The notes below the pieces were generated by a model. It was not told the origin of the DNA. It was given only the letters and a program-made list of their open reading frames with translations, and searched no databases. From the IMG/VR virus record IMGVR_UViG_3300021387_001774, positions 96,001 to 160,000 of that record: DNA of 64,000 bases. One strand, 5' to 3'. Origin of the DNA: a virus (lineage: Duplodnaviria; Caudoviricetes). Below, piece after piece: positions 1,875 through 48,084 of this stretch (its first letter is position 1; every line of letters begins with the position of its first letter). A program made the translations under genes and the position numbers.

Positions 1875-4058
1875 ATACATTATAATACTAAAAATATATC
1901 TTTCTTAAGAATGCATTATATATTGAAAGAAATGGGTATTACAAATAATGTATTCTTTTTACAATTATTTGATGAAACATTAGTAGATGTTGATCCTTTT
2001 GATGAAGAGCATTTAACTGATGAACAAAAAATCAGAATTCATATAGAAATAAGTAAAAATCCTTGGTATTATTTCAGAGAAATAGTTAGAATTCCTGCAA
2101 CAGATATACCGGCTAGATTTGAATTAACTAGAGCTACATTAGCTATAACATGGTCGTTACTTAATGATTTACATTCGTATATTGTTATTCCTCGTCAGTG
2201 TTATAAATCGTATACTGTAGCAATTTTTTATAGCTGGTTGATATATTGGGGATCTAAAAACTTTTCTTCAGTGTTTTTTGGTAATAATGATACCCTTGTT
2301 ACTCAAAACTTAGCTCGTGTAAAAGATATACGTGAAACATTACCAAAGTATTTAAATCTAAAAACTAATAGTGATACAGATAATACTAGAACCTTAATTT
2401 ATAAGACAGAAAATTTTAAAAATACAATTGTAATTAGAGCTCCTGGTATAAATGAAGAAGCGGCAAATAACGTTGGTCGTGGTGCTTCAACTATGGGACA
2501 ATGGTATGATGAGTTTGCATTTATTCCTTTTGTATGGGTTCAATATGGTGCAGCTATTCCTGCTTATTCTACAGTATCAAAAATGGCAGAACGAAATGGT
2601 TCTCACCACCATATTATAATTACAACAACTGCTGGTAGTAAAAATACAAAGAGTGGTGCTTGGGCATACAAATTTTTTGAAGACTGTGCACCATTTACTG
2701 AGCTATTATATGATAAAGTGATTTATGATAAAGATGGATTCCCAGTAGCTACTAATAAAGACGAAATCAAAGAATATATTCAAAACAATAACAATGGACA
2801 ATACTTCTTACGTATAGAATTCCAATGGTATGAACTCAATAAACCTATGGACTATCTCGAAGAAATGAGACGTCAATGTGGTGGTATGGATGAGTTCAAT
2901 CGTGGTATTCTTAATATGTGGATGGATTCTAATGCTGATCACCCATTAGGACAAGAAAGAGTAGAAGAGTTAACTAAAACAGGTATCGATCCAGTTAGAA
3001 TAATGATGATCGATAGAATTTATGTAGCAAAATTCTATAGGGATCCAGACGTTTTAAAGAACCAATCGCATCACATAGTATTTGGTATGGACTGTTCAGG
3101 AAATACAAGACGAGACTATTCTACACTAGTAGGATTGGATGTAACTAATTCAGAAGTAGTATTTACAATGAGATGTAATCAATATTCTGTAGTTAGATTC
3201 GCTAGAGCTGTAGCATATATTCTTCTATATTTATTCCCAAAAGCTACATTAGTTCCAGAAAGAAACTATGTAGGTTTACCTGCTGTAGAAATTATAGCAG
3301 AAAATATGGGAACTAGTAGAATTTATAAAGATGAAAAAGATGAAAAGCTTGGTGTTTCTTTGGTACATAATCTTCGTAAAATTATGTATGGGGATGTATT
3401 ACGTGTTTCTGTATATGAGCATGGACCAAAGATCCACGATAAAACAATCATAAATGAAATAGCTGGCTTGATAACTGATAAGAATGGACGTATTGACCAT
3501 AAACAACGTGGTGGACACGATGACCTTCTTATTGCTTATCTATATACTAGATGGTTCATTATGTATTGTAAAACAAAAAATAGATATATCGATGCAATAT
3601 TCTTTAACTCTAGATTAGATGAAGATCTGAGTGAAGATGAGCTTATCGATTTAGCTAAATATTCTTCTGATGCAGAATTAATGAATTCAGTATTAGGAGA
3701 TGGAGGTTATATGCAAAGATTAGCAAAACGTATGGAACAAAGAGCAGAAAATAATGATCATATTACTATGCAAATTAAGAAAGCTATAGATATGAGAAAC
3801 AATGATTATAAAGAAATGGGATTCTTTGGATCTGCTGATGATTATATAAATAATTATCGAGATACTAATAAGATTAAAGAAACTGAAACAGCTATCGATT
3901 ATATCGCTAAAGAACATATGGCTGATGCACATGAATATTCGGAAGATCTTGATAAAGATGATCCAGAAAAGATTGCAAAAGAAACTGAAGAAAAAAGAGA
4001 CGATAGTATGGATTTCAAATCTGTGTTTGCTGACTCTTTTGGTTGGTTTGGTAGATAA
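1872..4058 (+). CDS. terL: Terminase large subunit
   Basis: NPWYYFRE motif, Walker A-like PRQCYKS, GRG, Walker B WYDEFAF, TTT coupling motif, RNase H-like nuclease motifs (GMDCS, ERN, HDDL). Confidence 0.9.
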   Translation: MIHYNTKNISFLRMHYILKEMGITNNVFFLQLFDETLVDVDPFDEEHLTDEQKIRIHIEISKNPWYYFREIVRIPATDIPARFELTRATLAITWSLLNDLHSYIVIPRQCYKSYTVAIFYSWLIYWGSKNFSSVFFGNNDTLVTQNLARVKDIRETLPKYLNLKTNSDTDNTRTLIYKTENFKNTIVIRAPGINEEAANNVGRGASTMGQWYDEFAFIPFVWVQYGAAIPAYSTVSKMAERNGSHHHIIITTTAGSKNTKSGAWAYKFFEDCAPFTELLYDKVIYDKDGFPVATNKDEIKEYIQNNNNGQYFLRIEFQWYELNKPMDYLEEMRRQCGGMDEFNRGILNMWMDSNADHPLGQERVEELTKTGIDPVRIMMIDRIYVAKFYRDPDVLKNQSHHIVFGMDCSGNTRRDYSTLVGLDVTNSEVVFTMRCNQYSVVRFARAVAYILLYLFPKATLVPERNYVGLPAVEIIAENMGTSRIYKDEKDEKLGVSLVHNLRKIMYGDVLRVSVYEHGPKIHDKTIINEIAGLITDKNGRIDHKQRGGHDDLLIAYLYTRWFIMYCKTKNRYIDAIFFNSRLDEDLSEDELIDLAKYSSDAELMNSVLGDGGYMQRLAKRMEQRAENNDHITMQIKKAIDMRNNDYKEMGFFGSADDYINNYRDTNKIKETETAIDYIAKEHMADAHEYSEDLDKDDPEKIAKETEEKRDDSMDFKSVFADSFGWFGR

Positions 4059-17447: not shown

Positions 17448-18323
17448 TTACCACTGATTAGGATTTGTAGGTTTGGCTGTAACATTAAAATTACTAGTTA
17501 TTGACCGCGAATTCTGTCCTGAAGCTCCATCAGCTACACTTCCGTATCTTGACCAAGAGCCATAACTAGTAGTAAATTTTGAATGATAAAGAAATTGACC
17601 CGTTTTAGGATCATAAGTTGCTTTATGGTACCAAGCGTCAGCATGAGAAATTTGTACAACGTTGCTCCACCAATAATATTTACCATCTTTCCAGTATGAT
17701 TCAGTTGAATATAAATTATAGTTTGTACTGCTTTTCATCTTTCCATATTCCCATCCAGTTCTCCATTTAGTAATATCTCCAGGTATTTGATAATATCCAC
17801 TAGGAATAGTACCAGCAGGAGGAGGAAATATATAAATATCGAAATTGAAATCATCCTCCGCACCATATTTATTCAAAAACTTATATCTTAAATCTTTACT
17901 AAGATCTATCTTAAATTTATTCAAATTAGTTCTAATAGTAGTATTAAAATTACTAATATCACCTTTATTTTTATACAATTGAATTCTTTTACTATTCTTA
18001 ATATTTTCATTTGTACCTTTACATTTATCTACATTTCTCATTATCAATGATGAATCATATGAATTTATATTATCTTGAGGTCTAAATAAGTGATAAACGT
18101 CATCAGAACGATTAAAAATTGATGAAGAAGAGGGTTGTACTATTTTTATTTTATTTAATTCGTCTATTTTTTCAAGACCTTTATTATCAACGTCGTTAGA
18201 ATAAAGATATTTTTTATCTTCTTTACATAATATGTTATTAGTAGTTTCGTTTACTTTTCTAACCTTATCATTATCTGATATACAATTTTTAATACTTTTT
18301 ATTAAAGAATTTACTGATTTCAT
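17448..18323 (-). CDS. Late (probably virion) protein with a K/N-rich N-part and an aromatic-rich C-terminal domain
   Basis: GGAGG SD, GACA-N5-ATATA at 18347-18360; PPP linker then a W/Y/G-rich domain. Confidence 0.7.
   Translation of the reverse strand: MKSVNSLIKSIKNCISDNDKVRKVNETTNNILCKEDKKYLYSNDVDNKGLEKIDELNKIKIVQPSSSSIFNRSDDVYHLFRPQDNINSYDSSLIMRNVDKCKGTNENIKNSKRIQLYKNKGDISNFNTTIRTNLNKFKIDLSKDLRYKFLNKYGAEDDFNFDIYIFPPPAGTIPSGYYQIPGDITKWRTGWEYGKMKSSTNYNLYSTESYWKDGKYYWWSNVVQISHADAWYHKATYDPKTGQFLYHSKFTTSYGSWSRYGSVADGASGQNSRSITSNFNVTAKPTNPNQW
17935..18020. repeat. 86-bp perfect inverted repeat, arm 1 (inside the CDS)
   Basis: Exact reverse complement of 18393-18478, checked base by base. Confidence 0.95.
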
Positions 18324-18392
18324 ACAAGAAATCCTCCATTTTTAGATATATTACCATGTCAGCCCACCCACCACCCGTGTAAATAAACTTTG

Positions 18393-18478
18393 AAAGGTAC
18401 AAATGAAAATATTAAGAATAGTAAAAGAATTCAATTGTATAAAAATAAAGGTGATATTAGTAATTTTAATACTACTAT
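18393..18478. repeat. 86-bp perfect inverted repeat, arm 2 (intergenic)
   Basis: Encodes the same peptide KGTNENIKNSKRIQLYKNKGDISNFNTT on the plus strand. Confidence 0.95.
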
Positions 18479-18553
18479 ACTGCTACAAGATATATGGGTT
18501 CAACAAGTGGTCCGTAGTCTATATATTTTAACTACTGTTCAAACCTATCTTTC

Positions 18554-18570
18554 AATTATATATTATATAT
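18554..18570 (+). promoter_or_regulatory. Early-type promoter AATTATATATTATA
   Basis: Same motif as about 20 other intergenic sites. Confidence 0.65.
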
Positions 18571-18813
18571 GTGAAGGGATGGAGGTATCTCGCAGCCAGA
18601 AACAGTACCCTTCCTGGGCTGGAGAATATTAGTGTCTATGCTTTTTAGCATAGACACTTCGAAAAAAGCAAATAAACATCTGACTCACCACTTGTTGTGG
18701 TGCGCTAAGAGCCAGGGATTGGAAGCCGCAGGTTTAACTGCATCGGTGCGCAACGATGTAGAAGTTAGATCCAATCAAGTTAAGAAGGGTGTATACTACA
18801 CCCTTCTTTTTTT
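18571..18813 (+). ncRNA. Putative structured noncoding RNA of unknown family
   Basis: GC-rich island between a promoter and a terminator; multiple stems and a possible pseudoknot; no convincing ORF. Confidence 0.6.
18782..18813 (+). terminator. Intrinsic terminator
   Basis: aagaagggtgta-tac-tacacccttctt plus a T-run. Confidence 0.8.
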
Positions 18814-18880
18814 ATTTATATATTATATTAATAGTAAACTCGTATGAGTTTATAAAAATATTTTCCAAGGAGTTACAATT

Positions 18881-19828
18881 ATGGAAAAAAGAACTTTTTC
18901 AGCGATCGTGAAGTTTTATAATTACTTCATGAATTCACCAGAATTTAAGCGGTTGGAAAGAGTAAATCAATTTAGAGAACCAATCATAAGTGCATCGTTT
19001 TCTGTACTTACTGGAGCTTTAATATTTTGTATTTATTCTTTAATGATGTGTTTAAAAGGAGTTTCACCATTTGATGACAGATATGTAGGGTTATCAATAA
19101 CACTTTTAATAGGTTCTACAAGTTTTGTTGGATTTATAATTAGTGTTTATTGTGGTTTTTCCAGTTTTACTAAAATCGGAACATACGAAGATTTAGTACA
19201 ATTAAAACGTGAACTTGAGTACCTCATTCAAAAAATAGTTTTTAATAAACCTTTATCTGTTAAAGAACCATCTCATTATATTGGTACGGAAAGCTTTTCA
19301 ATAGAAATAGATAGAATAACATCTTTATTATATTCTACTTCTATGAAAGTACTTGATTTTTCTTTCTATAACAGATTATCTAGAGTTTTAACTGAGATCT
19401 TGGGAGAATTTATGTCCTTAAGTGCTCATGTAGTAACATATGATAATCTCAGGAAATGTGTAGAAAAAATAATATTTTTCGATATCAATATATTGAATTC
19501 TGTACCTTTTTCTTCTATACATCGAAACGATCTAGCGGAAGTTAACTCAGTCAGATGTATAAAGGATTATGGAGCAATCATAAAAAATTCAGATCTTCTA
19601 AAAAATAATTGTTATGAATTCTTGATTAGAACACGTCTAGCCACTAATCCTGATGATTTAGAAATGTTAAAATCTACAGATCTTTTCGATAAAAACAACT
19701 ATATATTTAATTGCGAAGCCGTTCGTTCGTCTTACGGTTTAACCTGTTTAGAGATGGATAAACGAATAGCAGAATTCCGTAAAAAGTATGAGAAAGAAAA
19801 AAGAGAAGATATTATCGATTGGATCTAA
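18881..19828 (+). CDS. Membrane protein with two TM helices
   Basis: AGGAG SD, early promoter at 18814-18832. Confidence 0.7.
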   Translation: MEKRTFSAIVKFYNYFMNSPEFKRLERVNQFREPIISASFSVLTGALIFCIYSLMMCLKGVSPFDDRYVGLSITLLIGSTSFVGFIISVYCGFSSFTKIGTYEDLVQLKRELEYLIQKIVFNKPLSVKEPSHYIGTESFSIEIDRITSLLYSTSMKVLDFSFYNRLSRVLTEILGEFMSLSAHVVTYDNLRKCVEKIIFFDINILNSVPFSSIHRNDLAEVNSVRCIKDYGAIIKNSDLLKNNCYEFLIRTRLATNPDDLEMLKSTDLFDKNNYIFNCEAVRSSYGLTCLEMDKRIAEFRKKYEKEKREDIIDWI

Positions 19829-19873: not shown

Positions 19874-22000
19874 TTAAATCATTCCCGATTTTTTCAAAGC
19901 TCGTTTCATATATCTGAAATCATGTTTGATAGAAGTGTTGAATGATGAATCGTGTATACCATCACCAATAGATGGATCTTTATAGAATGAATCTATATCC
20001 TTGAATACTTTAGTTAATTCTTGGAATATTAATGATGAATAAAGATCTCCTTTGAAAATAGCCGTTTTAAGATTAACAACACATACATCTACATTCTTTT
20101 TACTAAAATTAGGTCTCTTCATTATATTATTTGGATCTCTAGTTAATGCATGAATAATTGGTTCCATATAAACTAATTCTTTATTTTTCATACCTACTCT
20201 ATTTATCAAATCTGCAAATTCGTTTATTGGATCATCAAGATTTGTATACCAATTAGGTTTAGATCTTTCGATAATATTCTTTAATTCTTTAATATATCTA
20301 GAAGTTTCAGCTGTAATGTATTTAATATTAAACACTGCTGTTCCAGGTTTAATATCTTCAAGATGCAATATAGCTACTTCAGAATCAATTGGTAATTCGA
20401 TTTTCTTTACATTATGTAGAGTCATCATTTCTGGAGACAATGTTAAGAACACTCCATCCAATGTCACATCATAACTAGTTTCTGTTTCTTCATTAGTAAA
20501 TTCATCATACTTCTTAGTTATAATAGTTATATCAGTTAGCATACTAGATACAACAGAATTAGAATTTATATTTTCTGTATCGATATCATCGTCATCTTCC
20601 AAGTCTGCATCATTCTCAAGACGTTCTACAATATCTTCAACATATTCTTTATTGAATAATATGGAAATTCTATCAGCTTCTTTTAATTGTTTAAGTACAA
20701 GTTTAGAATCTTCATTATTGAACAACTTTAATAGTTCTTCATTGTCGAATTCTTTAGTCTTTGTACCAGTATGATGTTTTACAGCCATTACTAAGTTTGA
20801 TAACGGATTTTCAATTTGTGTACTTGTTGCTCCACCAATCATATAATCTGATTTAAATTCTTTAGGATTACCATAACAGCATTTACATACTTTATGTCTA
20901 TTAGGATGAGCACATGTTACAATACTTCTTAGCTTAATTGTTTGACCTATAAGATGTGTATCAGTTGGTTTTATTTCTACTATCTTTCCATTAGGAAGAA
21001 TCATATTTTTAGAAATAACTAGATCTAAGAATTTCTTATCTTTTACTTGATAATTCACATAATGTGGCGTTCCACAATCTTCCATAGAATAATCTATAGA
21101 AAGATTCATTCCTGTTAAGTTTGTTTCTCTAGACATATATCCAGATACAGAAACGTATTTCTTTTTCCAAATAAGACCTTTAGCAGCAATTTCAGATTCA
21201 GCAATAAGATCGCCAACGTTCTGTAATCCATTAAGATAAGAACGTTTCATAATATGATTCATAACAATATTTGATGAAGACATACGTGGTCCTACTGCTA
21301 TGAACATCTGTTGTAACTGTTGGTCATTAAGACAACCGGATTCTATAAATGGTACAAGACAAGACTTACCATCTTGTAAAATAATTTTCTTTAATCTCTT
21401 ACCATCTTCAACCAATTCTTTTTCTATAGTTGCAAATGATTTAGTTTCATCAATAGTTGTATCAAGTAAATCTCTAAAATTTGCATCACGTTCTGTAAAC
21501 TTAGCAATATCAAATAAGTTTAATGTTGGAGCACTAATTGGTGCAAATAATTCTGTAAGTCTAGTTAATCTTTCAGTAAGATTACTAAGGAACCAAGAGA
21601 AAACTTCTCCGGAGTTTAACTTCTTTTTCTTTATGAAAGGATAAATCTTTGTCTGTGTATATTCTTCGATATGTTTATGATAATCTTGGAAGAAACGTTT
21701 GTCTATATCAACTAACCAATCTCTAGTAACTGGAACTTTATACATAAAGTTAAATTCAAGAAGATAGAGATTAATTAATAACTGGAATAATGAAATATTT
21801 ATAATATTATTGTTTTCATCATAAATTGTAACTATGTTATTTGCTCTTGTATAATCGTCCATGATATAGTTTGTAATGTATTCACAGAATACATCATAAT
21901 CACGTTTAGATCTAAATATAGTAAATAATTCTTTCAGATCTATTTTCAGTTCATTTTTATACAAATCGGACATAAGATAATCAACACCAAATATAGACAT
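19874..22000 (-). CDS. Phage multisubunit RNA polymerase beta'-like subunit, C-terminal part (probably non-virion RNAP)
   Basis: Bridge-helix SGYMSRE, EDCGT, LRS..TC, VCKCCYG Zn site, trigger-loop region M..KH; no NADFDGD motif, so the N-part is encoded elsewhere. Confidence 0.85.
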   Translation of the reverse strand: MSIFGVDYLMSDLYKNELKIDLKELFTIFRSKRDYDVFCEYITNYIMDDYTRANNIVTIYDENNNIINISLFQLLINLYLLEFNFMYKVPVTRDWLVDIDKRFFQDYHKHIEEYTQTKIYPFIKKKKLNSGEVFSWFLSNLTERLTRLTELFAPISAPTLNLFDIAKFTERDANFRDLLDTTIDETKSFATIEKELVEDGKRLKKIILQDGKSCLVPFIESGCLNDQQLQQMFIAVGPRMSSSNIVMNHIMKRSYLNGLQNVGDLIAESEIAAKGLIWKKKYVSVSGYMSRETNLTGMNLSIDYSMEDCGTPHYVNYQVKDKKFLDLVISKNMILPNGKIVEIKPTDTHLIGQTIKLRSIVTCAHPNRHKVCKCCYGNPKEFKSDYMIGGATSTQIENPLSNLVMAVKHHTGTKTKEFDNEELLKLFNNEDSKLVLKQLKEADRISILFNKEYVEDIVERLENDADLEDDDDIDTENINSNSVVSSMLTDITIITKKYDEFTNEETETSYDVTLDGVFLTLSPEMMTLHNVKKIELPIDSEVAILHLEDIKPGTAVFNIKYITAETSRYIKELKNIIERSKPNWYTNLDDPINEFADLINRVGMKNKELVYMEPIIHALTRDPNNIMKRPNFSKKNVDVCVVNLKTAIFKGDLYSSLIFQELTKVFKDIDSFYKDPSIGDGIHDSSFNTSIKHDFRYMKRALKKSGMI

Positions 22001-47840: not shown

Positions 47841-47965
47841 TTGTGAAACCTTCCTTTATCGATTTCATAATATATATTCATATTAAAGTTTAATTACAAA
47901 AGTACAATATAATGTATAAAAAATATTTTAAATATATATTATGTATATGCACGATGAGTGTATTT

Positions 47966-48039
47966 GGCTCTGTAGCTCAGTTGGATAGAGCAATTGCCTT
48001 CTAAGCAATGGGTCGGCGGTTCGAGCCCGTCCAGGGTCG
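47966..48039 (+). tRNA. tRNA-Arg (anticodon UCU)
   Basis: Acceptor GGCTCTG/CAGGGTC, D-arm TAGCTCAGTTGGATAGAGC, anticodon arm ATTGC-CTTCTAA-GCAAT, GTTCGA T-loop. Confidence 0.93.
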
Positions 48040-48084
48040 TACCATTCAGTACGAATGGATAAATATATTTAAGGAGGGTAATAT

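Follow-up and report, generated by a model that had tools for sequence, protein, structure and literature searches.

The window, that is, the whole 64,000-nucleotide stretch analyzed here, corresponds to positions 96,001-160,000 of a 263,686-bp viral record (genome label G000) with a GC content of 29.5% and a completeness of 94%. The genes flanking the locus under study code for an RNA-polymerase beta-type subunit (19874-22000, minus strand), a primase, and a DnaB helicase. The top named matches of the polymerase subunit were AR9, PBS1, and phiR1-37 (approximately 24-27% identity), and the phage was therefore assigned to the AR9/phiKZ type of jumbo phages, without a close cultured relative. 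The region was present in animal gut metagenome runs, which were bovine or sheep wherever an animal was named; the window derives from an AR9/phiKZ-type rumen jumbo phage of about 264 kb. The sequencing runs listed for the region included none of RNA, and the single run labeled metatranscriptomic, which is probably of DNA, had no reads over the element; neither finding bears on expression.

Upstream of a 315-aa gene (18881-19828), the window carries a GC-rich island bounded by an early promoter and an intrinsic terminator (Table 1). A preliminary description had listed this promoter, the island, a set of possible pairings, the terminator, and a further promoter for the next gene, and all of them were found where it had placed them. 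The predicted transcript has a GC content of 45%, compared with 29.5% for the genome, and only 0.2% of genomic 200-nt segments are equally GC-rich.

Table 1 Features of the RNA cassette and its predicted fold (window coordinates).
Feature	Position	Strand	Basis or remark
Conserved motif, left edge of a cassette subclass	18529-18539	-	Minus strand reads AACA-N5-TA
Early (virion RNA polymerase-type) promoter 13-mer	18554-18566	+	51 genomic copies; AR9 consensus (PMC5312081)
Predicted non-coding transcript, ~240 nt	18573-18813	+	Folding; homolog
Predicted helix P1 (18573-18578 with 18608-18613), begins at +1, crosses P2 (H-type pseudoknot)	18573-18613	+	Invariant in L278; 4% chance in shuffles
Predicted helix P2 (18588-18591/18622-18625 and 18593-18597/18617-18621), bulged G	18588-18625	+	Compensated changes in L278
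Switch-like strand; possible partners: 5' end (P1), 18712-18718 (via 18611-18617), or terminator 5' arm 18784-18791	18606-18613	+	Computed pairings
Predicted hairpin P3, 12 bp, variable	18631-18658	+	Three Watson-Crick double substitutions in L278
A-rich single-stranded linker	18659-18677	+	Variable 5' half; last 9 nt invariant
Predicted 3' domain: P4 (18678-18685/18763-18770) closes junction with P5 (18686-18702) and P6 (18738-18761)	18678-18770	+	MFE and centroid
Predicted second pseudoknot: internal loop 18717-18722 with 3' tail 18771-18776	18717-18776	+	Duplex -9.8 kcal/mol; invariant
Self-complementary hexamer in the 8-nt loop of P6	18747-18752	+	Loop self-duplex -10.5
Intrinsic terminator of the cassette (12-bp hairpin 18782-18808, T run to 18813)	18782-18813	+	Same arms in L278
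Separate early promoter of the downstream 315-aa gene, outside the RNA cassette	18814-18826	+	Kept in RNA-less sister phages

The early-promoter geometry of AR9, mapped experimentally, consists of the 13-mer, 6 nt, and a G at +1 (PMC5312081). In G000 the base 6 nt after the 13-mer is G in 47 of 51 copies and A in the other 4, and the AR9 arrangement was found at the RNA gene, which places the predicted +1 at G18573, where helix P1 begins. The single homolog of the RNA, in L278, keeps the same spacing, so that in either copy transcription would start with the opening base of P1. The terminator of the L278 copy, at another site, has unchanged arms and differs only in its loop, and the equivalent of the promoter at 18814-18826 is missing after the RNA in L278. 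The left-edge motif occurs in 13 copies upstream of early promoters in G000 (about 15 nt before a subclass of them) and also in L120, L272, and L278; in G000 the opposite strand of these sites often reads AACA-N5-TA, and by its sequence the motif is possibly a leftward late-type promoter aimed back-to-back at the preceding cassette. The late consensus of AR9 has N6 (PMC5312081), and the late-type genes inspected in this phage use RACA-N6-TA, compared with the AACA-N5-TA of the left-edge motif.

The surroundings of the cassette were also examined. The 315-aa gene, its downstream neighbor, belongs to no Pfam or PHROG family, and Atlas searches with the two proteins flanking the RNA gave no usable match. 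A paralog of the 315-aa gene (28% identity) was found at G000:C1 37341-38294, where the promoter upstream has the same leader start (36516), and a similar D-W-I motif stands at both chain ends, that is, at the C-terminal endings of the 315-aa protein and its paralog. On the other side, positions 17448-18518 form an invertible C-terminal switch, in which the promoter and 5' part of a 291-aa gene lie between the arms of a perfect inverted repeat of 86 nt (17935-18020/18393-18478). The arms of this switch measure 203-234 nt in sister phages, where a full alternative C-terminal cassette was seen in L120, L310, and L312, the opposite orientation in L311, and several different C-termini after a shared PPP motif; the alternative cassette of G000 carries an internal deletion. 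The 291-aa switch gene matched no Pfam, PHROG, or Atlas family, and our guess is that it encodes a receptor-binding or surface protein. Elsewhere in the window there is a single tRNA-Arg(TCT) gene (47965-48040). The gene for the anaerobic ribonucleotide reductase NrdD is called in sister phages as two pieces with a gap of ~475 nt (L272:7670-10325, L273:4803-7545) and gives a faint intein signal, possibly reflecting an intron and an intein.

The only homolog found (L278:1662-1873, minus strand) lies on a 33.5-kb bovine-gut contig; its cassette is 87% identical to the window copy, compared with ~97% identity to G000 over the flanking 21 kb. The differences are concentrated in P2, P3, and the linker. 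Within P2, a T-A pair is replaced by A-T through a double change and one C-G pair is lost from both strands, and P3 shows three double substitutions, all Watson-Crick, plus one extra pair. No pair of P2 or P3 is broken, giving in total four double substitutions and one paired deletion; the eight altered stem positions make up four matched pairs among 21, with a naive matching probability of 5e-5. The check on covariation among homologs proposed in the preliminary description thus yielded compensatory changes in P2 and P3 of a single homolog, which argue for selection on structure; because the comparison comprises two full alleles only, the covariation has little independent power. The P3 changes could stem from one template-switch event (DNA hairpin correction), an account that suits the pseudoknotted P2 less well. 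Where the stems vary, most of the loops and junctions stay constant, which fits recognition of shape or by a protein. In the 3' half, L278 differs only by an insertion in one loop and a single change in the tail, a constancy that is not significant by itself because both phages are 97% identical. A low-depth contig from a third run carries the change at 18588 and lacks the deletion at 18596, at a depth too thin to use.

Two candidate reading frames of the window copy were compared with the homolog. The 17-codon ORF (ATG 18579) is frameshifted after six codons in L278, and the 71-codon ORF (GTG 18632), which in the window copy continues through the terminator, has lost its SD and start there and contains a stop and a frameshift. 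A conserved peptide ORF, which the preliminary description had named as the finding that would speak against an RNA gene, was thus not found at this locus, both candidates being disrupted in L278.

Folding of the RNA gave a z-score of -4.7 with the terminator. Removal of the terminator changed it to -3.6, a value reached by 0 of 200 shuffles, and removal of P3 as well changed it to -2.0; body values of -3.6 and -3.0 were counted in favor of an ncRNA gene. The 5' pseudoknot domain alone, folded without crossing pairs, is not significant (z +0.5). The reverse strand folds at z -3.5, so that energy does not settle the strand, which is set by the promoter, the terminator, and G-U pairing within P4 and P6. 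When helices were counted greedily with pseudoknots allowed, 8 of 300 shuffles did as well (40 of 300 without P3), a modest excess only, and the single-sequence evidence for pseudoknots is therefore weak. The crossing helices of the preliminary description stood in part: P2 is supported by the changes in the homolog and is the only pseudoknot helix with comparative support, whereas the predicted P1 and 3' pseudoknot are invariant in L278.

In the 3' domain, most pairs have probabilities of 0.8-1.0, and the domain is invariant in L278 save for one loop insertion. The 8-bp helix P4, overlooked in the preliminary description, closes this domain, which makes the pairing between 18717-18722 and 18771-18776 a second pseudoknot. 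The hexamer in the P6 loop is self-complementary and kissing-loop dimers are therefore possible; the same loop can alternatively pair intramolecularly with 18700-18706 (-10.9). Also missed earlier were two helices (18611-18617/18712-18718, and 18606-18613 with the terminator 5' arm) that compete with P1 and P2, and the proposed fold is therefore not unique. Our working model comprises an H-type pseudoknot formed by P1 and P2, the P3 hairpin, the A-rich linker, and a pseudoknotted 3' domain.

The promoter-RNA-terminator unit of L278 lies between genes for proteins of 782 and 2982 aa, unlike the site in the window. The corresponding position in G000 (17522-17535) is empty, with an apparent decayed promoter remnant, and protein cassettes occupy it in L272-L274. 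The slot of the window, which precedes the 315-aa gene, is vacant in L255, L310, L312, and L314; it is filled by a 73-aa gene in L311, L313, L315, and L316, and by a gene of 92 aa in L120 and L121. Since sister phages carry nothing or one of these two genes there, the RNA is exchangeable early cargo, and the existence of two sites with filled and empty slots indicates that it is autonomous, dispensable at either site, and not the leader of a fixed gene. A patchy pattern of early cargo is typical of host-interaction genes. The claim of a stand-alone structured ncRNA with its own promoter and terminator is thus upheld by the promoter geometry, the compensatory changes, the loss of the ORFs, and the relocation of the entire unit to an unrelated site.

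The cargo of the cassette lies between repeated sequences of an early promoter and a terminator and differs among close relatives, as in the PeSL cassettes of the T4-type phages RB49 and phi1, in which non-essential cargo is inserted, deleted, or replaced between early-promoter/terminator repeats (PMC2839356). Comparing filled with empty sites, we infer that the cassette would likewise move by recombination between its promoter and terminator repeats. Unlike PeSL, the promoter is of the virion-polymerase type instead of sigma70-like, and a structured RNA takes the place of an ORF as cargo.

Several further elements were recorded. A structured leader of ~120 nt precedes unrelated early ORFs in the same type of cassette at G000:C1 73448, 90001, 246038, and 257413, as well as at the end of L124:2347-3071 and in L125:6187-6829, and other early slots carry tiny ORFs. 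In L124, a relative at 88% identity, an ORF-free unit of ~445 nt (2385-2830, plus strand) lies between an early promoter and a terminator and adjoins the polymerase gene. This unit is unrelated to the window RNA, folds with a z-score of -4.3 including its terminator, has no Rfam match and no phage BLAST match, and is absent from G000; it is a candidate large ncRNA. A long non-coding stretch between tRNA-Leu and tRNA-Lys (G000:C1 217560-218080) contains a tRNA-like element and a multi-helix RNA and showed no relation to the window RNA by nhmmer. Another GC-elevated, ORF-free interval with several hairpins was located at G000:C1 243205-243779.

Neither copy of the RNA matched a family among the Rfam 15 covariance models (including riboswitches, ribozymes, SRP, RNase P, tmRNA, 6S, ROOL, GOLLD, and HEARO), even at E 10, when this check, suggested in the preliminary description, was run; the hits were at chance level, mostly on the terminator or a hairpin. 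The raiA motif (RF03072) had no match at E<=10 in the genome. A tRNA/tmRNA search found none at the RNA, which has no tRNA-like acceptor/T-arm or tag reading frame, and together with the Rfam models this bears out the earlier view that the RNA resembles no tRNA, tmRNA, RNase P, or SRP. No reverse transcriptase of the retron/DRT kind (PF00078) was found in G000. Self-BLAST revealed no family of tandem repeats within the RNA such as those of type III antitoxins (ToxI, CptI, TenpI), and there was no Rfam ToxI match. The five GGA motifs, compared with about four expected from composition, do not suggest a sponge of the CsrB/RsmZ type.

Scans of IMG/VR and GTDB genomes with homolog DNA patterns, which have limited sensitivity, returned chance matches only, as did a short-pattern scan of JGI metagenomes among the matches listed. 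BLAST of 50,697 phage records and of plasmid collections, likewise of limited sensitivity, revealed no relative. A covariance model built from the two sequences found nothing in 10 distant-relative records (~57-63% protein identity, one of them near complete) or in 30 other loci; the model is weak, and its empty result therefore does not show absence. The motifs of the RNA had no match in the literature; the RNA may be listed in the viral structured-RNA catalogue (PMC10690425). Resemblances to raiA, glmS, SRP helix 8, RNase P loops, fluoride and cobalamin riboswitches, group I/II introns, HDV-like ribozymes, and Cas9 repeat/anti-repeat were rejected as coincidences of short motifs, with a misfitting order of pairings and no Rfam match. 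A replication-origin primer was also discarded, as the site is not at a GC-skew extreme and the RNA is dispensable at both sites.

Judged by sequence comparison, the RNA stands outside every family tested; in kind, its nearest counterparts are orphan RNAs with multiple pseudoknots known from phages and bacteria, namely ROOL, GOLLD, and raiA (PMC12286853). Like these, it is predicted to be stand-alone and non-coding, with several pseudoknots and a non-essential or patchy occurrence (PMC12286853); ROOL is also associated with the rumen and with phages, and raiA (205 nt) is close to it in size. Unlike ROOL and GOLLD (600-800 nt), it is much shorter, lies outside tRNA islands, and matches no covariance model, and unlike all three, it travels as a promoter-terminator cassette. 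Its H-type pseudoknot followed by an A-rich strand with a ToxN-type AAAU site resembles type III antitoxins (PMC5086642, PMC3475682). However, its pseudoknot unit of 53 nt, compared with 34-36 nt in ToxI/AntiQ, has no tandem repeats and no toxin gene, and a large extra 3' domain follows; it is not a type III antitoxin. phiKZ, a jumbo phage with two multisubunit RNA polymerases, also expresses ncRNAs (review PMC13282480); compared with these, the window RNA has comparative support for a pseudoknotted fold, and no sequence match was present in the 50,697 phage records.

Taken together, we put the probability that the element is an accessory structured ncRNA gene, apparently undescribed, at about 0.88, on the strength of sequence comparison. 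The mode of action is a separate matter, and five alternatives to a structured RNA acting by its shape were weighed.

The best surviving of these, though unlikely, is a riboswitch-like attenuator. The six bases that open the RNA recur in the 5' arm of the terminator, and the 3' strand of P1 is therefore a potential antiterminator: P1, as an anti-antiterminator, would hold 18606-18613, and if P1 remained unformed, this strand would pair with the terminator 5' arm and permit read-through. In a variant, a captured sensing leader would now serve as a mobile switch or as a free ligand-soaking aptamer. The first hexamer of the RNA occurs in only 2 of the 71 genomic terminators. The antiterminator helix (8 bp, -10.6) is equalled by 3 of 70 other terminator arms on the same RNA, and none of the 70 other terminators pairs as well with its own upstream sequence. 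Nested, pseudoknot-free folds of the nascent RNA pair C18609 with the terminator arm at p 0.9-0.97, and the arrangement is kept in L278. However, the observation is post hoc (p ~0.04), no Rfam riboswitch matched even at E 10, and the switching strand lies ~170 nt upstream of the terminator. Moreover, different genes lie downstream at the two sites, each with its own promoter, leaving no fixed regulated gene, and attenuation was graded low for this reason.

A base-pairing sRNA directed against host mRNAs or rRNA, with the invariant SD-like hexamer 18581-18586 and the purine-rich junction 18703-18737 as its seed, seems rather doubtful. The unpaired stretches are indeed invariant and no start codon follows the SD-like hexamer, but most candidate seeds are locked in pseudoknots, and complementarity, measured against phage sequences only, was not above shuffles: six matches of at least 12 nt were found in the phage genome, compared with mostly 3-13 in shuffles, and 217 phage start regions showed no enrichment. 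A 12-nt complement between the 3' tail of the RNA and the end of the 315-aa gene (19817-19828) was treated as chance.

A new class of trans-cleaving, self-cleaving, or ligating ribozyme is improbable. The compact multi-pseudoknot layout, the invariant junctions, and a size about that of raiA would suit a catalyst, yet there is no ribozyme signature to sustain the role suggested earlier: no Rfam ribozyme matched, the helix order is not HDV-like (there is no P3/L3 in the HDV sense, and closure of the second helix comes 3 nt past P1), and, since both ends are already set by the promoter and terminator, self-cleavage has nothing obvious to release. Hardly likely, too, is a small-peptide gene or a decayed, functionless cassette. 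The 17- and 71-codon ORFs of the window copy do stand behind SD-like sequence, and tiny ORFs fill other slots, but the breaks and frameshifts in L278 and the run of the long ORF through the terminator weigh against a peptide, and the compensatory stem changes point to selection on structure.

The preliminary description had noted a loose resemblance to TnpB-associated omega-RNA, and TnpB/IscB omega-RNAs (HEARO, IS605-orfB motifs) do share with the window RNA a length of 200-250 nt, pseudoknots, and a variable hairpin after a GGAGA-like stretch. The resemblance did not hold: the motif after P3 (18659-18670) is among the least conserved parts in L278, and no guide, transposon ends, or cognate nuclease gene was found. 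Both copies, which lie at different sites, finish 3' with a shared terminator, leaving no variable TnpB-type guide, and the 5' end, which begins at P1, is identical in both, leaving no variable guide of the IscB/HEARO type. The earlier remark that the window has no TnpB gene extends to the whole of G000, in which the sole sub-threshold TnpB/OrfB match lies inside a 581-aa NrdD-like ORF and controls were detected; an iscB search of G000 found no match, with controls equally empty. Besides the loose resemblance, a weak CRISPR-DR40 match (E 3, far under its cut-off) and the position of the RNA next to the invertible segment in G000 would favor a guide RNA, or the relic of an omega-RNA (IS200/IS605), a tracrRNA, or a bridge RNA, that works with a protein in trans, for example on that segment. 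This reading is very improbable and already largely refuted: the 94%-complete genome contains no TnpB/OrfB, RT, or IS110 recombinase (PF02371), the longest match to the invertible region is 11 nt, at chance level, and the homolog lies on a different contig from that region, whose two orientations both occur in sister phages with no copy of the RNA adjoining it.

Since the guide, peptide, and phage-antisense readings are disfavored and the RNA occupies slots of accessory early proteins, binding of a host factor by shape would be the most likely mode of action. The RNA may thus work in trans as the ligand of a host protein or as its decoy, a reading that we hold tentatively and at somewhat less than even odds. 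Among the guide, ribozyme, and decoy roles entertained in the preliminary description, decoy fares best, yet it is a role that we only infer.

In the proposed course of events, the packaged RNA polymerase would make the ~240-nt transcript from G18573 in the first minutes of infection, and the transcript would fold into two pseudoknotted domains linked by the variable hairpin and the A-rich linker. A paired 5' end hinders RppH and RNase J, and the paired first base together with the terminator hairpin would give a long-lived, abundant early RNA. In trans, the RNA would then rely on its fold and invariant loops, and not on base pairing, to bind a host protein or complex; a defense nuclease, a toxin, a decay factor, or a translation factor are candidate targets, with the RNA as decoy or inhibitor. 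The RNA might dimerize through the palindromic P6 loop, and the ornate RNAs ROOL, GOLLD, and OLE form multimers (PMC12286853). The pseudo-ToxI of phage TE, an RNA mimic directed against a defense protein, is a precedent for phage RNA mimicry and the closest functional one for the present RNA (PMC5086642). The cassette itself would recombine between repeated promoter and terminator sequences in the manner of PeSL.

A bolder version, which we regard as unlikely, would make the RNA the first of a new class of phage RNA effectors, a mobile early cassette that disarms host defense by mimicking the RNA ligand of a defense protein or as a switchable aptamer that soaks up an immune signaling nucleotide, with the terminator coupled to correct folding; such an aptamer, if real, would be the RNA counterpart of phage protein sponges.

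To our knowledge, only a small number of phage RNAs act through their shape, and hardly any has an assigned function. The present one is small, has predicted ends and two natural alleles, and occupies slots usual for host-takeover proteins, which makes direct synthesis and testing feasible. The cassette suggests that structured RNA genes can be shuffled through the accessory slots of phages like protein genes, and that standard annotation overlooks them.
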